In this document: positions 28,857-48,526 of the stretch, in pieces
How positions within the stretch are numbered: position 1 is the stretch's first letter
How the letters are laid out: each line of letters begins with the position of its first letter
Assembly (NCBI GenBank): GCA_951406725.2
Contig: OX597820.1
Span: 29,512,001-29,576,000 of the forward strand
From: Octopus vulgaris
Taxonomy: Eukaryota
Direction of reading: 5' to 3'
DNA length: 64,000 nucleotides
The notes under the pieces: generated by a model
The model's database searches: none
What the model was told of the DNA's origin: nothing
What the model saw: only the letters and a program-made list of their open reading frames with translations
Made by a program: the position numbers and the translations under genes

Positions 28857-29620
28857 CAACTGGCTTGCTCTTATGTTGGTAGCAGATCAACTGGCCTGCT
28901 CATATACTGGTAGCAGATCAACTGGCCTGCTCGTATACTGGTAGCAGATCAACTGGCCTGCTCGTATACTGGTAGCAGATCAACTGGCCTGCTCATATAC
29001 TGGTAGCAGATCAACTGGCCTGCTCGTATACTAGTAGCAGATCAACTGACCTGCTCGTATACTGGTTGCAGATCAACTGGCCTGCTCTTATACTGGTAGC
29101 AGATCAACTGGCCTGCTCGTATACTGGTAGCAGATCAACTGGCCTGCTCGTATACTGGTAGCAGATCAACTGGCCTGCTCGTATACTGGTAGCAGATCAA
29201 CTGGCCTGCTCGTATACTGGTAGCAGATCAACTGGCCTGCTCGTATACTGGTAGCAGATCAACTGGCCTGCTCGTATACTGGTAGCAGATCAACTGGCCT
29301 GCTCATATACTGGTAGCAGATCAACTGGCCTGCTCGTATACTAGTAGCAGATCAACTGACCTGCTCGTATACTGGTTGCAGATCAACTGGCCTGCTCTTA
29401 TACTGGTAGCAGATCAACTGACCTGCTTGTATACTGGTTGCAGATCAACTGGCCTGCTCGTATACTGGTAGCAGATCAACTGGCCTGCTCGTATACTGGT
29501 AGCAGATCAACTGGCCTGCTCGTATACTGGTAGCAGATCAACTGGCCTGCTCTTATGTTGGTACCAGATCAACTGGCCTGCTCATATACTGGCAGCAGAT
29601 CAACAGGCCTGCTCATATAC
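28857..29620. repeat. 31-bp minisatellite, about 24.5 copies (tggcctgctcgtatactggtagcagatcaac)
   Basis: Units start at 28861, 28892, 28923 and so on. Copies are highly identical and have no spacers. Confidence 0.95.
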
Positions 29621-30596
29621 TTTCACTAGTTATATATGAGGATGAAGCCAAAATAAGGCAGAAACATATCTGAAGTTGTATCTGATATATTTTCTGGGAA
29701 AAAAGAAGAAAAAATCATTAGCCATCAGCTAATATTATTGATTTTTATTATGTCATATTTTTTCAAACTGCATATTTTATTGTACTTAAACTTTTTAATG
29801 TTCCACACATTAAATATATTAACATTTATGCAGCTAATGTTGTTTATACAGATGGTATCTCTGGAATTATTTAATGTCTGTAGTTTTTATAGTTAACCTG
29901 TAAATTGTCAATTTATTTCTCTTTGAGAGTATGCAATTTTGCCACTGTAATCATCAAATAGCTGTTACATAATTTGACTTGTACATTGTCGAATATGTTA
30001 CATAAGCATTCAATTCATGTCTGAATATGCCATAAAATATTTCTGGCATTGTGTCAAACTGAGAATTGATATTTAACATGTGTGATTGTATGGTTAAGAA
30101 GTTTGCTTCCCAACTACATGGTTTCAGGTTCAATCCCACTTTGTGGCAACCTTTTTTCACTTTGCCGCTGGACTGAAAAAGCACTATTTGAGCATGACCG
30201 TCACCAGTACCGCCTGACTGGCCCTCATGCCGGTGGCACATAAAAGCACCCACTACACTCTTGGAGTGGTTGGCGTTAGGAAGTGTATCCAGCTATAGAA
30301 ACTCTGCCAGATCAGATTGGAGTCTGGTGCAGCCATCTGGTTCACCAGACTTCAGTCAAATCGTCCAACCCATGCTAGCATGGAAAGCAGACGTTAAATG
30401 ATGATGATGATGGTACACTTATATTCTTTTCAAAATTTGACAGCACACCTGAACTAAAGACATAACTAAAAATATAAGGAAAAAATTATATTCTGGTTAA
30501 ACTGTGGCACACATAGCATCATCTCGTGGCACACCAGTGTACTGTGGCATAACAGTTGCAGAGCACTGCATAGCCTATAGAAACTGAAAGAAACCC

Positions 30597-34058: not shown

Positions 34059-34418
34059 CTTAAATATAAATGTATACCTCTGTTTCTTTATATCTGTCAA
34101 TGTCTTGTTTTGCATTCAATATCATTCAACTATGGTTTGTTGAACAGCATTTCTGCATCACTTCAACTTTATTCACTTGCTACTTACCTGTAATTATTGC
34201 ACCTGCATTTTTTCTTTTCTTTTTCTATTTCTATATTTTTCGTTATTTTATTTTATTTATTTATTTTTTGCATTATTTTTATTTTGTTTTCATTGTTTAT
34301 TTATGTTTTACTTGCATGACTTTGTTGTTCTTGTTGTCATTGCTGCTGCTGTCATTGCCGCTGCTACCTCCACCACCATCACAACCACCACCACTACTAC
34401 TTTTATACTGATACACAG

Positions 34419-34478
34419 GTATCAGACGCAAAACTTTTTCAGGAGATGTCATCGACTGTGACCAACTTAACAGAAAAA
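34419..34478 (+). CDS. ARFGAP1: Candidate duplicated/alternative ArfGAP1 exon, 60 nt, phase 0-0, VSDAKLFQEMSSTVTNLTEK
   Basis: Acceptor ttttatactgatacacag|GTA and consensus donor AAA|gtaagt. Same length and phase as exon 41922-41981. It is 8/20 identical to the recalled human peptide, with hydrophobic positions 6, 7, 10, 14 and 17 conserved. Confidence 0.75.
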
Positions 34479-35016
34479 GTAAGTGTCCCCCCTCCCTCGC
34501 CAAACTCTATTGAATGGCATCTTTTATTTTATGGTTTTATCTTTTCTTCTTTTTTTATATTTTATTTGCTTTCTTGCCTGCTATTTTCCCCACACCCTTA
34601 ATTAATTTTTTTTTATCTATCATTACTCACCTTTTATTTTTTTTATTTTATTTTTTTTGCATTGTTTGTAAAACTAATTGTTATTTTCTTTATAATTGTT
34701 TGTCTATGTAACAACATATCTTCTGCTACAAAACTAACATGTGTAGTTACTAAACTAAGAAATAACTAAATTGATTAAAATTAATTAAATATTTATAGTT
34801 TGTTTCCCAGCCACATGGTTCCAGGTTCAGTCCCACTGTGGCACCTTGAGCGCTCACTTTTAGCTGGATTGGTTTAATTAAAAATGACAAACTTTATTAT
34901 TATTATTATTCTGATGTGTTGTTTGGAACATAATCAGCAAAAAGTCTTACATGAAATTATGATGATTTCTTTTAAACTGGTGTGTGGGGTTACATGATAG
35001 AACAAGGGTATATTGA

Positions 35017-35350
35017 GGGCCAGATATATGGGCCTAAGTGTGCCATGGTTCAGGGGAGGCCCCAGGTATTGGAGCACCTCTTTAGCTCAAAGACACCTAA
35101 AACTTGGAGTTAGATTTTTTTTTTAATTCATCTACAGCAGTCAAATAATTTGTAACCTCTTTTAATCCAATAGGGTTCTTTTAAAATTACTGAGCCCTCT
35201 GTTGATTTATTGGGGCCTCTTCAAACTGTTTGGGGCCCTTAGATTTAAAAGAGCCCCTTTTGGTTATCTTATGTTTTGAATTAGTAAAATCATAGGGGAG
35301 CCCCTAAAATCTATTAGCCCAGGGGCCACACAAGATCTTAATCCAGTCTT
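35017..35350. mobile_element. Degenerate hAT-like MITE (CAGGGCCGGATT-type ends)
   Basis: agggccagatat ... ttaatccagtctt ends with internal ggggccc motifs. A similar end occurs at ~18980-19011. Confidence 0.45.
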
Positions 35351-36862
35351 AGTTCTCTCATAAAAATTGTTAAATGAAATGAATTGTTAGTCCATTCCTG
35401 AATTTCAATTAGTTTGATCTCTGATCGTCATCATTTGTTTTATTGGTGGATATGTAGGTGCAGACATGGCTATATGGTTAAGAAGTTTACTTCCCAACTA
35501 AATGGTTTGGGGTTCTTCCTTACAGCACGGCACTTTGAGCAAGTGTCTTTGACTATTGCTTCCACCTGGCCAAATTTTTGTCAGTGGAACCAGTTGATAG
35601 AAACTGAAAGTAGCTTGTGTGTGTCTTGATATCACTTGGGAGATGTGAGTGTCACTATCATAAAAGCAATGCTGTTCATTTGCAGTCTTCTGTAAAAACA
35701 TGTCTGGCTATGAAGAAATATTACCTTTGATTGGAAATAGACATGGGTTGGTGATAGGAAGGGTATCCAACCATAGAAAATATGCATCACTGAATTTTGT
35801 TTAACCCATACAAGCATGGAAAAGTGGCTGTTAAAATGATAAAGATGCGATGCACTTAATTTCTGGCTAAGAAGCTTTATTTCTAAACTAGACACAGTAA
35901 AATGCTGTTCTCCACTTGGTTTTGAATTGACAGTCATTAGAACATTCGACAGTATATTTCATGGTATTCATTCCAACTCTTTTTGCTCTGAGTTCAAATC
36001 TCACCAAGGTCGATTTGGCCTTTCATATTTTTGAGGTCAATAAAATGTACCAATGTAGGGCAGAACTGTAGGAAAATCAACCTGGATGTCTTCCAATATT
36101 CATTCAGCTCTCTGGATTTTGAGTTCAAATCCCACTGTGGCTCACCTTAGCTGGTAGTCTTAAGTTATCAACCAGTTTGACATCACCACCTGGCACCAGG
36201 GATGTCTTTATAGAGCCCTGCTCTGTAAGCATCCAGGTTAGATCTTTGGGTTTTTGGGGGGTTTTTTTAGGATAACTTCATCCCTCCATCTCATTTGTCT
36301 TGGAGGCCTTACCTCTTGAGTAGGATATAAAAAAAAAGAGGGAAAAAGTATTCTCATCTAGTCTTCTAGCATTTAGATTATACTGTGAAATGTAATGCTT
36401 ATTTATTCAGTTTGTTTTGAATTACTCATGCACAATCTCATAGTTTTAAGATGTCAATGATGTGATTGTATATTTTTAGAACCACATTCTATGATAGGTC
36501 TGAAAGGCCAAGTCTGGCCAGTTTGAACATAAAACAGGTTGAATATTTGGGGCAGAAATGCCTGGCTTAGATCCTAAAGGGTTAATGTTAGAGTCATAAA
36601 TTATTTAAAATTATTTTTCACAAAAGACGGCCATATTAAGCTGATGTTGAAGCTCAATCAAGTAGACCAACATTATCAATGATGGATCTTCAACAGTGAT
36701 CCACAAAACTCTATCAGCCATGCTTCTTTATATATAATCCTGTTTTCTTTTTGTTATTGTTGTTTGTGTATTTTTTAACCAGTCATTCTTTATATCCTAC
36801 TATCAGTATATGTTTGTGTGTGTGTGTGAGAATATATGTATGTGTGTATATGTGTGTGTATG

Positions 36863-36921
<59 letters not shown>

Positions 36922-37903
36922 ACAAACAGTTACCCCTTCGAGATCAATAAAATCAATTGATATGGGTATGGTTTGAACTCTAACCTTCCTAGACACTTAT
37001 TGATCTTCCATTTGATTCTTTTTATCTACCAATGATCCATTGCCATCCATTCTAGATTGCTGGCTCCCATTTTCACTAATCCATTTTACAAACCACGAAA
37101 ACCTCTTCGTGACTGCCCTCAACTGCATGCTAGAAATAGCAGCTAGATTTCCCTCAAACCATACACTGTTCTATTATAAAAAATATAATGGCACATGGAG
37201 CAATTTAGTAGTCTTAGAGGTATTACATCTGATTAATAAAAGACATGCTTCTTTCAGTTTCCACTCACAAGGCATTTGGTTGGCCCAAGGTACCACGAAG
37301 TGAGAATGAACCTGAAATCATCTGGTTGGGAAACAAAGTTCTTTACCATAGAACTATGTCTGCACCTTCACATGGCCACACCTGTTTAAAAATTATCTAA
37401 ATATAAAGCTTTCCATCAAAATTTTGTGTAAAATTATGTTCCAAACACCAGCTTAATAATAACGACAGTCATTTTCCTAAATACTTCATTATTTTCAAAA
37501 TCACTTCCAAAATTAATTGAAAGAAAAAAAAACAATGGTGTATTTCAATAGAAACACAACCACAAAAGTGTTGACATCCTTTTCTAACATTTTTTTTTTA
37601 CTCCTAAATATTTAACCATTTTCTTGTGTGTGTTTGTGTGTGTGTACACTATTTCTAAAACATGGCTTTCTGATTTTTGAAATTTGCAATTATCTGCTTG
37701 AAATCACAGCATTTTGTAGTTTAATTTTCAATTTCACAGGAACGGAAATCTTATTAAGGACTCTGGATTTCATTTTGAAATCTGTTCTTTTTTTCCGTGC
37801 CTCCTTTCCTCCCTCCTTCCCATTACATTAGTTCTTATTTTGAACTGGGCAGTTGCCAGGGCTTGGGTTTTGCAGATCTCTATCAGAATGCCAATTTTGC
37901 CAG

Positions 37904-37939
<36 letters not shown>

Positions 37940-38043
37940 TTAACGAGTCTCCAAACTGTACTTGGTTCGGAGCTGGTCATTGATTGTGACTTGCCTTTGC
38001 TGGGATCTGTTTGGTTTCCTACACTCTTATACTCTTATCACAG

Positions 38044-38064
38044 CCATGGGGTGGGGGAGGAAAG
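38044..38064 (+). CDS. Candidate 21-nt in-frame microexon (PWGGGGK) between the two paralogous exons
   Basis: Pyrimidine tract tttcctacactcttatactcttatcacag|CCA and donor AAG|gttaga. Phase 0-0, in non-repetitive sequence. No homology support. Confidence 0.35.
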
Positions 38065-38377
38065 GTTAGAGTTCAGTGGAGTAACTGTATTCTCATATTC
38101 TCTCACTCACTTCTTTGCTGTTGGTCTTTTTTTTCTTTCTCATTCTCTGTAACAGAAACACACACACTTCTGTCTTTCTTTACCATCTCCCTTCCCTTTT
38201 CTTAGTCTCTCTCTCTCTTCTCTCTTCCTCTCATATAAGCTCACACATACACATATAACATATGCACACACACACACATGTGCATATATTACATACTCCC
38301 TCTATCTCTCTCTCTCTTTCACATATAAACCCACACACTCATATAACTCACATTCACACACACCCGTGCATATATCA

Positions 38378-38446
<69 letters not shown>

Positions 38447-40082
38447 GCACAGACTTACACCTTATTTCATTGTCTGTTCTCTGCTTTCTTTTTTGCCCAT
38501 CATTTTCTTTTCCTCTCACTCCTCTGATTTATTCCCTCATTCCATTACTCTTCTCTTTTCTCTCTCCCCTTTCCATACACACACACACACACACGTGTAT
38601 CTAAGTATGTGTATATATATAGTGTGTGTACATATATATATATATATGTGTGTACATATATATATATACATATATGTGTGTGTGTGTGTGTGTATGATGT
38701 ATATATGTATGTATGACTCTCCCTCCTTTCTCAAAGCTGTCTGTTTCCATAATGTCAAATTAACTGATTCCTTATTTAGATTGTATTCCAGGGACAAGAA
38801 ACTTGCTTTGGCTTCAAATATCTTATTCGCTCAACTAACAAACACATTCCTAATCACTCTCAATCTTCCTTACAAGATAGCAGTGGTGTGGAGGGCCACG
38901 AAACATTGCTGCTGTTTCACAATGGTTTCACTTTGATGCTTTCAGTTGCATTGGATAGTTTAGAAGGAAATCACATTCAGTGAATTGGCAAAGCTATTAG
39001 AGTGTCAGATACAATACCTCAAAGTATTTGTTCCTTTGTTCCGAATCCTTGTTCTCTGAGTTCAATTCCTACCAAGGTCAATTATGTCTTTCATCATTTG
39101 AGAATCAATAAGAAAAAAAAGTATTGATCCAGAACAGTGGATTGATGGAAATGTAAGAATGGTGGGCCAAATGTCTTGTGGCATTTGTTCTGGTTTCTGG
39201 CATTCTGAATTCAAATCCTACCATGGTCCCCCAACCCTTGCTTATCTGAGCGGTAGGTTTAATTTGTTCTGGTTGATACTTCACACCTCAGGTGTCTTTA
39301 ACAGTGTTCCCATTGTTGCAGTCATTTTAGCCAGGTTTGCAGTTTAAGGATATCTTCCCTCCCTCCCACTTGTCTTCGAAGTTTTATGAATGGTCATGGG
39401 CATCACCTTCTCTCCTGTCTAAACAGATTAAAAAGAGAGAGACAGACGGACTTTGGCTAGATACAAAAACCTTGTACTTTAGAAGAGGTAGAAAAAGAAA
39501 GTGTGACAAATTTTTCCTATGCAAATTCACCTCACCAAGGTATTGAAGCTACATCTCTGTCTCAACATTTAACCTTACCAAACAGAGGAAAACTGAATTC
39601 TTTTGTGCTGAGTGATGATTAAAATAAACTGATGTTGAATGGAACAAATTTAACTGAAGAGTTTTAAATAAGGGACATAATTACTCCAAAATAACTTGTC
39701 ATCAGTTATTCCGTTTTTTCCTGAATATTTTAGTTTTTTGTCTCCTTTCTCATTTGCTGCATTGGTATTTCTGATGACTTAGAAGATTAATCCTTGCATA
39801 AAGCATGCATCTGCACAAGTTACAGTTGATTAACCCTTTTTATACCAACCCACCCAAAATTACCCTTGGTTCTATGGTACAACCTTCCTGCTTTGAAGTG
39901 ATCTAAATTAAAATTTGTTTAAAATTTGATGCTGTGTTCTGAATATCAGCTTAATAACAGCTAAGTTGTTTTACTGTATTCTTAATTATTTCAGAACTTA
40001 ATTTAAATAAAGAGGGTACATTTCAACAGAAATATGGTAACAAAATTATTAAATAGAAGAGGATATAGTTGAACCTGACAGA

Positions 40083-40091
40083 TTATTATTA

Positions 40092-40141
<50 letters not shown>

Positions 40142-40410
40142 AAAACTATTACATGCTACTTTGGTTAGGAAGGATGTTGTCTTGAGGTTTGCAGACAAGT
40201 CTCCTCAAATTTCAAGAATCTTTCTTCAGGTTCTTGCAGAATACAGGATGTCTCAATTCCCATATTCTTCAGTCTCCTGGGTAGCAGTTTGGGTGTTGTA
40301 CTAAATGCATCAATTACTACAAGAATAGATAATGTCTTCTATAATCTCTTCATATCTCTGGCTTCGTCCTGACCTCATCATTTCTATAACATTCTTGTCC
40401 AAAAAGTTTT
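40083..40410 (-). mobile_element. Decayed R4/Dong-like RLE LINE 3' end with (TAA)n tail
   Basis: The minus strand gives fragments like LSILVVIDAFSTTPKLLPRRLKNMGIET...KILEI*, followed by a long (TAA)n run at 40083-40137. Confidence 0.55.
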
Positions 40411-40495
40411 GCAGCATTTGAGATGGTTTGATGATAGAGTTTGTAATTTGCTGTTTTTCCCTCTTTTCAGCTTGATAGGTTTATCATCATCATCA

Positions 40496-40533
<38 letters not shown>

Positions 40534-40534
<1 letters not shown>

Positions 40535-40750
40535 GGTGGCAAGCTGGTAGAATCGTTAGCACACTGGACGAAATGCTTAGCAGTATTCTGCCTATTGCTA
40601 TGTTCTGAGTTCAAATTCCACCGTGATCAACTTTGCCTTTCATCCTTTTGGGGTCGATGAAATAAGTACCAGTTACACACTGGGGTTGATGTAATCAACT
40701 AGCCCTCCTCACCCCAAAATTTCAGGCCTTGTGCCTATAGTAGAAAGGGC
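40534..40750 (+). mobile_element. tRNA-derived SINE with Nin-domain-like core, family B (representative copy)
   Basis: ggtggcaagctggtagaatcgttagc head, gagttcaaattcc B-box and core gcctttcatccttttggggtcgatgaaataagtaccag, flanked by (ATT)n. Copies at ~37-182, ~12320-12510, ~13518-13730(-), ~27221-27435, ~42545-42735, ~43676-43912(-) and ~63285-63465. Confidence 0.75.
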
Positions 40751-41921
40751 TATTATTGTTATACTCTGAGTTGATGAAGAAAAATCAAACCAAATAAATA
40801 TAGCAGTTAATTAATGAATTAGGTAAATTAGATAAATGCCATTTTTTAGATTTTAGATATTTATGAATGCCACTTTGCTTTGAGACAGAGACTCAGTAAT
40901 AGATTTGGAATCATGAGTCTGGCACTTGCTGAGTGACTCCGTTAACAATGACACTGGTGCCAGTCAATCACATGATCTCAAATTAGTTGTGTAAATAATA
41001 TTTTTACTAGTTTTATAAATAATTTTTACTGTTATATTTTTTGTTAGAAGATCATTAGTATGTTACTTAAGAATACATGCAAGATAGACTAAAATAAAAT
41101 AATAAATGTGCCCTTTTAAAGCCTAGCCAAGCTCATGGGCCCAGTTTTCTGGTTTCAATGGCATATGTATTCCCCAGCTGGACGGGACGCCAGTCCATAG
41201 CAGCATTACTCATTTTTGCCAGCTGAGTGGACTGGAGCAATGTGAAAATGAAGTGTTTTGCTCAAGAACACAACGCGTCGCCCGGTCCAGGAATCGAAAC
41301 CACAATCTTACGATCATGATGCTGACACCCTAACCACTAAGCTACATGCCTCCACAAGATAGACTAAACCCTATATAAATTTATTACATGTTATATAAAC
41401 TAATGTCCCATCAAGCAAGGTGCATGTCACCATTTCAACTTCATTTTTATGGTGAGATGCCACATGATCACATGACCAACCAGGCTATCAGATGTCATTA
41501 CACACCACTGGTCAGAATGTTTTGCATCATCTTAGCATTCGAATAATGACACCCTGCTGGCTAGGCAAGCAGGTCAACATTCTATCCTGATCAAAAGGAG
41601 ACTGGAACAATGAAATGTTTTGCTCAATGTGCCGCCCAGTCTGGAAATCAAACCCACAATCCATTAATGATGAGTGTGATGGCCTAGCCTCTGGGCCATG
41701 CACCTTCACATGGTGAGATATATACCTTAAAAAATATTACATTATGCGTAGGCTAATGTCCTATCTAGCAAGGTGCTTGTCACCACCTCAACTTGATTTT
41801 TTCAGTGGGATATATACCTCTCACTTTCCAAGGGTGATCTGGAGTGTGAGTTTGTGTTTTTTGTAAAGTTTTTTGTGTTGGGGGAGAGACTAATGTTAGC
41901 GTGGTTTGTTTTGCATTTCAG

Positions 41922-41981
41922 GTGAAAGAGGGCACACTGCTGAATGACGTCGGCTCCTCCATGAGCGGTTTTGCTTTCAAG
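41922..41981 (+). CDS. ARFGAP1: ArfGAP1 internal exon, 60 nt, phase 0-0, VKEGTLLNDVGSSMSGFAFK (N-terminal half of the ALPS2-type helix)
   Basis: Acceptor ttttgcatttcag|GTG and donor AAG|gtatgt, with a branch-like actaat at ~41889. The peptide matches human ArfGAP1 VKEGKIFDDVSSGVSQLASK (recalled) at 10/20 positions. Confidence 0.9.
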
Positions 41982-42162
41982 GTATGTCCAGCCACCCTCC
42001 TCACTCCCTGTAAATAAAAGTACACATGCACACACACACATGCACATACACATGCACATTCATGCACACACACATGCACGCTCACGTGCTTATACACACT
42101 TGTACACACATACACAAAGTCTCTATTTTGATTTTGATTTGTGTTTTTATGTTTTTTTAATA

Positions 42163-44129: not shown

Positions 44130-44278
44130 TTGTCGTCAGCTAGCGCTAAAGGCTGGCAGGGTTTGTCTTCATCACTTTGGGGTGGAGAACCAAAAACAAC
44201 TCTTGCTACTGCTGACACCAGCCCCGGAGAAAAAACGTCGCTCCTGGGTGGAGGAAATGGATCGCCAACAAAGGGAAG
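44130..44278 (+). CDS. ARFGAP1: ArfGAP1 penultimate exon, 149 nt, phase 0-2, LSSASAKGWQGLSSSLWGGEPKTTLATADTSPGEKTSLLGGGNGSPTKG(R)
   Basis: Acceptor gtgtctttcag|TTG and donor GAAG|gtaagt. SAKGWQGLSSSLW corresponds to human GSKGWRDVTTFF (recalled). Splice phases fit both neighbouring exons. Confidence 0.9.
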
Positions 44279-47853: not shown

Positions 47854-48526
47854 AGATCCCAGCAAGAACCGGTTGTTGTCAGATGATGAAGATTCTTGGG
47901 GAAGCTGGGGCGCTGGAGACTGGCATCCCGGAGAAAGCAATGTTAGCAGCAATAGTGGCAGCACAAAGGCCCAAAGCCCTCTAACGGACATTTCACAAGA
48001 CAACCCTGCAGCTAATGCTGCTGCAAAAAAGAATGAGATGAATGAGCTGGAGAAATGGCTGAACGCTGGCCAGCTGGATAATGACAGCCCGAAAACAAGG
48101 GCCAGTAATACGCCGTCCAAGAAGTCAGATTTTATTTCCGATTGGGACGATTGGCAAATGGGTGGCTCAAAGGGCTCTGCCTCACCTGCTTCGTCTACCA
48201 AGTCAGCTTCCACTATAGAAAGCCCAGCTTTGAGTAGCAAGAAGAAGACAACCCCGTTGACAAAACCACAGCAAAATAAGATCCCCAAAAACCCCACTGC
48301 TTCTGCTGCTGCAGTCCCAGGCTGTTACGAGGCCTCCGACTGGAATAATGAATTCAGTGTCAAACAGAATGAACCACTCGTTGGTAATCTGGTGGACCTT
48401 GGTTCCGAGACAAGCACGGCTCAGGACAATTTTGGCTGGGACAATGAGGTGTGGGCTCAGGATAGTGATGATGAATGGCAATCTCTTGAGACCAATAGTA
48501 CTCCAAGTCGATCAAGAATTAAGTGA
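47854..48526 (+). CDS. ARFGAP1: ArfGAP1 terminal coding exon (223 aa plus TGA): disordered tail with Trp/acidic coat-binding motifs
   Basis: Acceptor ttttctattttctag|A completes the AG|A Arg codon from the previous exon. This is the only long, non-repetitive ORF in the window (track ORF 47813..48526). It carries DSWGSW, SDWDDW, DWNNEF, GWDNEVW and DEWQSL motifs like the ArfGAP1 C-terminus. Confidence 0.9.

Follow-up and report, generated by a model that had tools for sequence, protein, structure and literature searches.

The 64,000-nt stretch of Octopus vulgaris DNA analysed here, which we call the window (assembly GCA_951406725.2, contig OX597820.1, positions 29,512,001 to 29,576,000 of the forward strand), carries the end of the gene for ArfGAP1, including two exons of 60 nt that bear on the second amphipathic lipid-packing sensor (ALPS2) of the protein. 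That this is the ArfGAP1 gene, as the original prediction held, is supported by domain exons, structure matches, and a collinear full-length protein. The same strand carries exons encoding the ArfGap domain (PF01412) at 144-168 kb upstream, and residues 21-584 of Octopus sinensis isoform X1 (P0017) follow in order, with a single substitution, across the window and the 180 kb before it; an exon for its residues 1-20 is not in the 180 kb upstream of the window. Against solved structures, P0017 matches PDB ArfGAP1 at 1e-67 and ArfGAP2/3 at 4e-28 or weaker, and the last exon in the window matches O. sinensis ArfGAP1 at a rounded 100%.

All exons discussed here are on the + strand, with positions given in window coordinates. 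The order in the gene is exon U (90 nt, outside the window), an intron of 53,067 nt, exon A (34419..34478), a GT-AG intron of 7,443 nt that holds no third copy of the unit (34479..41921), exon B (41922..41981), 2,148 nt of intron, exon D (44130..44278), and the last coding exon, which runs through the TGA stop (47854..48526). Exon B is the standard unit and encodes the first half of ALPS2, exon D opens with the second half in a helical register shared with B, and exon A, corresponding to residues 272-291 of O. sinensis isoform X1, is what we take to be an optional duplicate of B. Exon D is present in a single copy, with one match genome-wide. Both A and B lie where they had been placed, each 60 nt long, in phase 0-0, with AG acceptors, GT donors, and the expected translations. 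They had been described as missing from the track of open reading frames (ORFs), which is incorrect, as their frames are present inside the stop-to-stop ORFs at 34320-34601 and 41850-42017.

Homology and occurrence of the two units

A and B share only 4 of 20 residues, as had been stated, and 27 of 60 nucleotides (10, 13, and 4 of 20 by codon position). Identities of 8/20 for A and 10/20 for B to a human peptide, as originally stated, were reproduced against the mammal-type ArfGAP1 P0207, 139 of whose first 140 residues match the ArfGAP1 chain of PDB 3o47 on comparison by eye. Because an earlier profile that included octopus units was circular for a test of chance, we built another from 30 single units of named cnidarian, arthropod, and deuterostome records, with no lophotrochozoans. 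With this outgroup profile, B (43.4) and A (32.5) are the top two among 173,144 stop-free six-frame windows in 244 kb, the next scoring 19.2. Between the flanking exons there are 86 stop-free candidates with the layout AG-60 nt-GT, and the third-best of these, behind B and A, scores 1.1. When either peptide was shuffled 20,000 times, its observed score was never attained. The resemblance between A and B is not due to chance, and no third copy of the unit occurs in the 244 kb or in any of the 44 two-unit proteins described below. The hydrophobic face proposed for both units, at positions 6, 7, 10, 14, and 17, is hydrophobic in octopus A and B, and in other species the five positions are retained in 19/19 A copies and in 18-19 of 19 B copies. 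The Ser/Thr/Gly-rich polar face proposed alongside it does not extend to A, which has no glycine and combines Ser/Thr with 4 charged residues in positions 5-20.

A census of 367 proteins of at least 40 residues found 44 with two units, 203 with one, and 120 with none above the cut-off, many of the last being fragments or distant relatives. Among molluscs, proteins with both units come from cephalopods including cuttlefish, gastropods, mussels, oysters, and the chiton Liolophura; beyond molluscs they come from the nemerteans Tubulanus and Lineus, the brachiopod Lingula, and the annelids Owenia and Paralvinella. Two units occur in none of the 30 named cnidarian, arthropod, and deuterostome records (one record per species), and further isoforms from six outgroup clusters likewise include none with two units among the records listed. 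Sorted into 44 lophotrochozoan species groups, 22 have both the A+B and the single-unit form, 5 have A+B only, and 17 have a single unit or none. These records are the best 120 of 2,389 matches in one search and the best 150 matches in another, with at most 15 members listed per cluster, so the absence of A from a group carries little weight. In Candidula (P0047), 20 residues inserted before B do not register as a unit; they resemble intron sequence and were left out of the count.

Exon A is already annotated in octopus gene models. O. sinensis isoforms X1 and X3 and O. bimaculoides X1 and X2 contain A and B, while O. sinensis X2 and O. bimaculoides X3 and X4 contain B only, and the 20-residue difference between public models such as XP_029639123.1 and XP_029639124.1 is exon A. 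The octopus and lophotrochozoan ArfGAP1 records compared carry automatic names, and none of them marks A as a duplicate of B.

Helix chemistry and a proposed membrane role for exon A

ALPS2 comprises residues 264-295 and forms an amphipathic helix on curved membranes (PMC13139335, in part). The matching unit in P0207 covers residues 259-278, so the placement of the segment within ALPS2 stands with a qualification, since, of the 32 residues of ALPS2, the unit supplies no more than the first 15 and exon D supplies the rest. ALPS motifs have no or very few charged residues on their polar face (PMC13530154, in part), and of the two sensors ALPS1 responds to curvature more strongly than ALPS2 (PMC3983069, in part). 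Judged by composition, exon B together with the start of exon D is a predicted ALPS motif, amphipathic, poor in charges, and with a Ser/Thr/Gly-rich polar face; 18-residue windows across the B-D boundary (starts 296-314) have hydrophobicity 0.29-0.51, hydrophobic moment 0.21-0.42, 1-2 charged residues, and 7-9 Ser, Thr, or Gly.

The chemistry of A differs consistently from that of B. Over positions 5-20, A has 3.7 +/- 1.0 charged residues and a moment of 0.50 +/- 0.06 (19 species), B has exactly 2 charged residues and a moment of 0.40, and the outgroup units have 3.5 and 0.45. Compared with the B of its own species, A is more highly charged in 17/19 cases and equal in 2, and its moment is greater in 18/19. 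Octopus A shows an amphipathic pattern with a bulky hydrophobic face (moment 0.54) and has 4 charged residues of 16, twice the number in B and as many as the mammal-type unit that lies inside ALPS2. These comparisons suggest that B has become specialized toward a low-charge ALPS, with A showing outgroup-like chemistry.

If A, B, and D were to form one continuous helix, the hydrophobic faces of B and D would be offset by 29-59 degrees and those of A and B by 149-176 degrees (19/19 species), although the A-B offset follows arithmetically from the 20-residue period and is not independent evidence. With these faces some 160 degrees apart, A is likely to be a separate helix, with a break near Gly4 of B, a residue kept in 21/21 B copies. 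A predicted structure of the single-unit Dimorphilus protein is uninformative here, with a mean predicted local distance difference test score of 51.8 and values below 50 in the region.

We consider it probable that exon A is a tandem duplicate of exon B that is either added before B or skipped, likely providing an extra amphipathic helix that strengthens membrane binding. Under such a scheme, a single duplication in the lophotrochozoan ancestor would have been followed by the shift of B to a low-charge ALPS while A remained outgroup-like, and the chain would break near Gly4 of B to give helix A, a turn, and an intact B+D ALPS2. Inclusion of A would then add binding avidity and, given its greater charge, would lower curvature selectivity, and it could shift where or when ArfGAP1 triggers Arf1 GTP hydrolysis. 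Charge added to the polar face cut curvature sensitivity in the ALPS of Nup133 (PMC13530154, in part).

A different role for a genuine optional exon would be that of a spacer or of a helix that binds a protein, such as a coat or adaptor, without anchoring the membrane. A is less ALPS-like than B, being more charged, less hydrophobic, and more variable, and in mammals a brain isoform with an altered ALPS2 shows stronger binding to AP-1/sigma1A (PMC4944158, in part), which keeps protein binding a live rival. It seems to us unlikely nonetheless, as the five hydrophobic positions are retained in every A copy from other species and the A profile resembles the single mammal-type unit, which lies within ALPS2.

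Joining of exon A and its proposed regulation and origin

The original prediction allowed A and B either to replace one another or to double the helix. Doubling holds in protein records, with A and B joined in 44 of them. Replacement is not supported, for in groups that have an A+B record the single-unit forms carry their own B in 31/31 cases and A in 0/31, a tally that excludes the Mytilus model P0082, which stops 3 residues past A. It could be argued that A and B are nevertheless mutually exclusive alternatives for the opening half of ALPS2, since they are equal in length and phase, A would be in frame and register with D, and in the annelid-like protein P0126 a lone A-like unit (log-odds +18; 16/20 identical to the A unit in P0120) is followed at once by D-type sequence. 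P0126 may, however, represent a lineage in which B was lost, and given the joined records and the single-unit tally we regard mutual exclusion as very unlikely. Nor do we see a block to joining, because fusion of A to B keeps the frame, the intron between them is 7,443 nt long, and the AG-free zone before B is only 20 nt. Full-length A+B and B-only proteins are also encoded on Logan contigs of at most 5.2 kb (P0032, P0033, P0034, P0111), in two squid- or cuttlefish-like clusters and one oyster cluster, and complete proteins on contigs this short point to spliced RNA.

The acceptor of exon A sets it apart from the rest of the gene. It is preceded by an AG-free zone of 269 nt (34148..34416, + strand) that contains a long U-rich tract and one TGCATG, in contrast to zones of 17-152 nt at 9 other acceptors of the gene; the acceptor of B is ordinary in this respect. 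Gaps of at least 250 nt between successive AG dinucleotides make up 11 of 13,287 in the 244 kb. Long AG-free zones mark regulated exons with distant branch points. The 3' splice site of A is thus likely to be regulated and its branch point to lie at a distance, and in the proposed mechanism this feature would make A the regulated exon of the pair. Matches to YCAY near A stem from a simple ACC repeat and were not taken as evidence.

The proposal of an old tandem exon duplication kept at the protein level is supported, and the duplication appears far older and more widespread than proposed, spanning four phyla. The presence of A+B in these phyla and in none of the 30 outgroup records points to one early lophotrochozoan duplication, and a single event before molluscs, annelids, nemerteans, and brachiopods split would be the simplest reading; we take such an event to be more than 500 million years old. 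As 20 residues are too few for a tree, we used a classifier in its place, and leave-one-species-out profiles assigned 40/42 units correctly to A or B. The pair might alternatively have arisen several times or been homogenized by gene conversion. The unit is a symmetric 60-nt module, A and its own B reach 11-12 of 20 identities in oysters, Mytilus, and Pomacea, further optional repeats lie nearby in Exaiptasia and Branchiostoma, and 20 residues hold little phylogenetic signal. Yet A is no nearer its own B than the B of other species (8.1 identities in both comparisons), units classify across phyla, and their order and the optional status of A are alike in every group with both forms, so that repeated origin or conversion strikes us as highly improbable. 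The notion that octopus A is a decaying pseudo-exon or splicing noise, for which the loss of Gly4 and the low identity to B could be cited, has a negligible chance of being right, because A has an open frame, a donor matching 8/9 consensus positions, and counterparts in four phyla, and because, in line with the predicted conservation among cephalopods, its sequence in the window recurs unchanged in O. sinensis and O. bimaculoides records and agrees with that of Argonauta at 15/20 residues.

Several observations do weigh against an added or skipped duplicate helix. The isoforms are mostly gene-model records for which read support was not seen, and a run search for O. vulgaris listed 24 runs, 20 of them containing the last exon, with no RNA run listed among the holders. 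The sole O. vulgaris record found (P0014, CAI9725391.1) lacks both A and B, which may reflect a missed pair of short exons or a genuine double skip. P0126 is apparently A-only, with no paired A+B form, and Lineus X3 skips both units, contrary to a pure cassette. A is not among the records listed for 17/44 groups (scallops, clams, Aplysia, Lymnaea, Capitella, Dimorphilus, and others), through loss or missed annotation. Mytilus A and Lingula B are the two units misclassified by the profiles, and A diverges fast, with a mean A-A identity of 8.8/20 against 13.9 for B-B.

Related systems and significance

Exon U and the linker between ALPS1 and ALPS2 show further variation of their own. U is flanked by introns of 96,881 nt (G000:C7:29396381-29493261) and 53,067 nt (29493352-29546418), far exceeding the other introns of the gene (2-25 kb), and O. 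bimaculoides records divide the gene near these introns into two models (224-aa and 304-365-aa records). The 30-residue exon U, between ALPS1 and ALPS2, is skipped in the X2 forms of Pecten and Argopecten, and the scallop records P0009/P0039 and P0010/P0040 are without exon A among those listed. Separate optional segments of 18-19 residues occur in the same linker in Exaiptasia (P0364/P0187), Branchiostoma (P0138/P0357), and corals (P0133, P0134), the cnidarian segment resembling a repeat of a U-like segment; optional helical modules may be especially frequent in this linker. In the unit-less records P0351 (Limulus X3), P0342 (Lineus X3), P0014, and P0069 (Mya), the 60-nt exon or exons are skipped or missed, and unit-less ArfGAP1 records retain half an ALPS2. 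Elsewhere in the gene, a segment at G000:C7:29379520-29379590 (locus L005) encodes residues 169-191 (23 residues) of O. sinensis X1 and is absent from X3. A tandem repeat with a period of about 31 codons, visible as recurring ORF translations at 28976-29639 of the window, is probably a satellite.

Mammalian ArfGAP1 offers a parallel in the same gene and the same segment, as a brain-specific isoform has its ALPS2 changed by deletion and insertion (PMC4944158, in part), and in P0207 the sequence changes exactly where the 20-residue unit ends. The mammal-type and vertebrate-type records compared differ in having one unit and an altered ALPS2, whereas in the present case a duplicate is placed ahead of an ALPS2 that stays intact. 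Tandem duplicated exon substitution likewise involves ancient, internal, homologous exons of equal length, but there one exon replaces the other (PMC9741552, in part). Our pair consists of adjacent tandem homologues, as mutually exclusive exons do, although the two are joined and, in groups with an A+B record, are not each used alone; joining in one transcript places them outside the strict definition of such substitution. ARFGAP is absent from the main text of that paper. The closest structural analogy is the H2d-H2a duplication of vertebrate COE/EBF, where a tandem helix-coding exon gives a repeated helix in one protein, but inclusion of that exon is mandatory and the helix belongs to a dimerization motif, while the ArfGAP1 copy is optional and part of a membrane sensor (PMC2394523, in part). 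We did not find duplication of the ArfGAP1 unit described in the searched literature, which mostly leaves out subscription papers and does not cover supplements, and splicing catalogues may list the exon. What is already known is exon A as an annotated isoform segment; what we did not find in print is its identity as an old and optional copy of the first half of ALPS2, shared by four phyla.

A broader possibility, which we hold only tentatively and on balance doubt, is that ArfGAP1 owes its number of sensor helices (none, B, A+B, or in some worms A alone) to a splice switch that predates the divergence of molluscs, annelids, nemerteans, and brachiopods, and that this switch, tissue-regulated and possibly neural, shifts the enzyme from Golgi buds of high curvature to membranes that are flatter or carry more charge. 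If this were true, the switch would parallel, by convergence, the ALPS2 isoform of the mammalian brain, and A and B would be a natural pair of charged and low-charge sensors.

The A+B pair is a character common to four lophotrochozoan phyla, and it draws attention to the O. vulgaris record that lacks both exons. For the biology of ALPS motifs it amounts to a modest refinement and not a new mechanism, in the form of two natural homologous helices, deeply conserved and distinguished chiefly by their charge, together with isoforms that differ by one helix. With these one can test directly how the curvature selectivity of ArfGAP1 depends on the number of helices and on the charge of the polar face.

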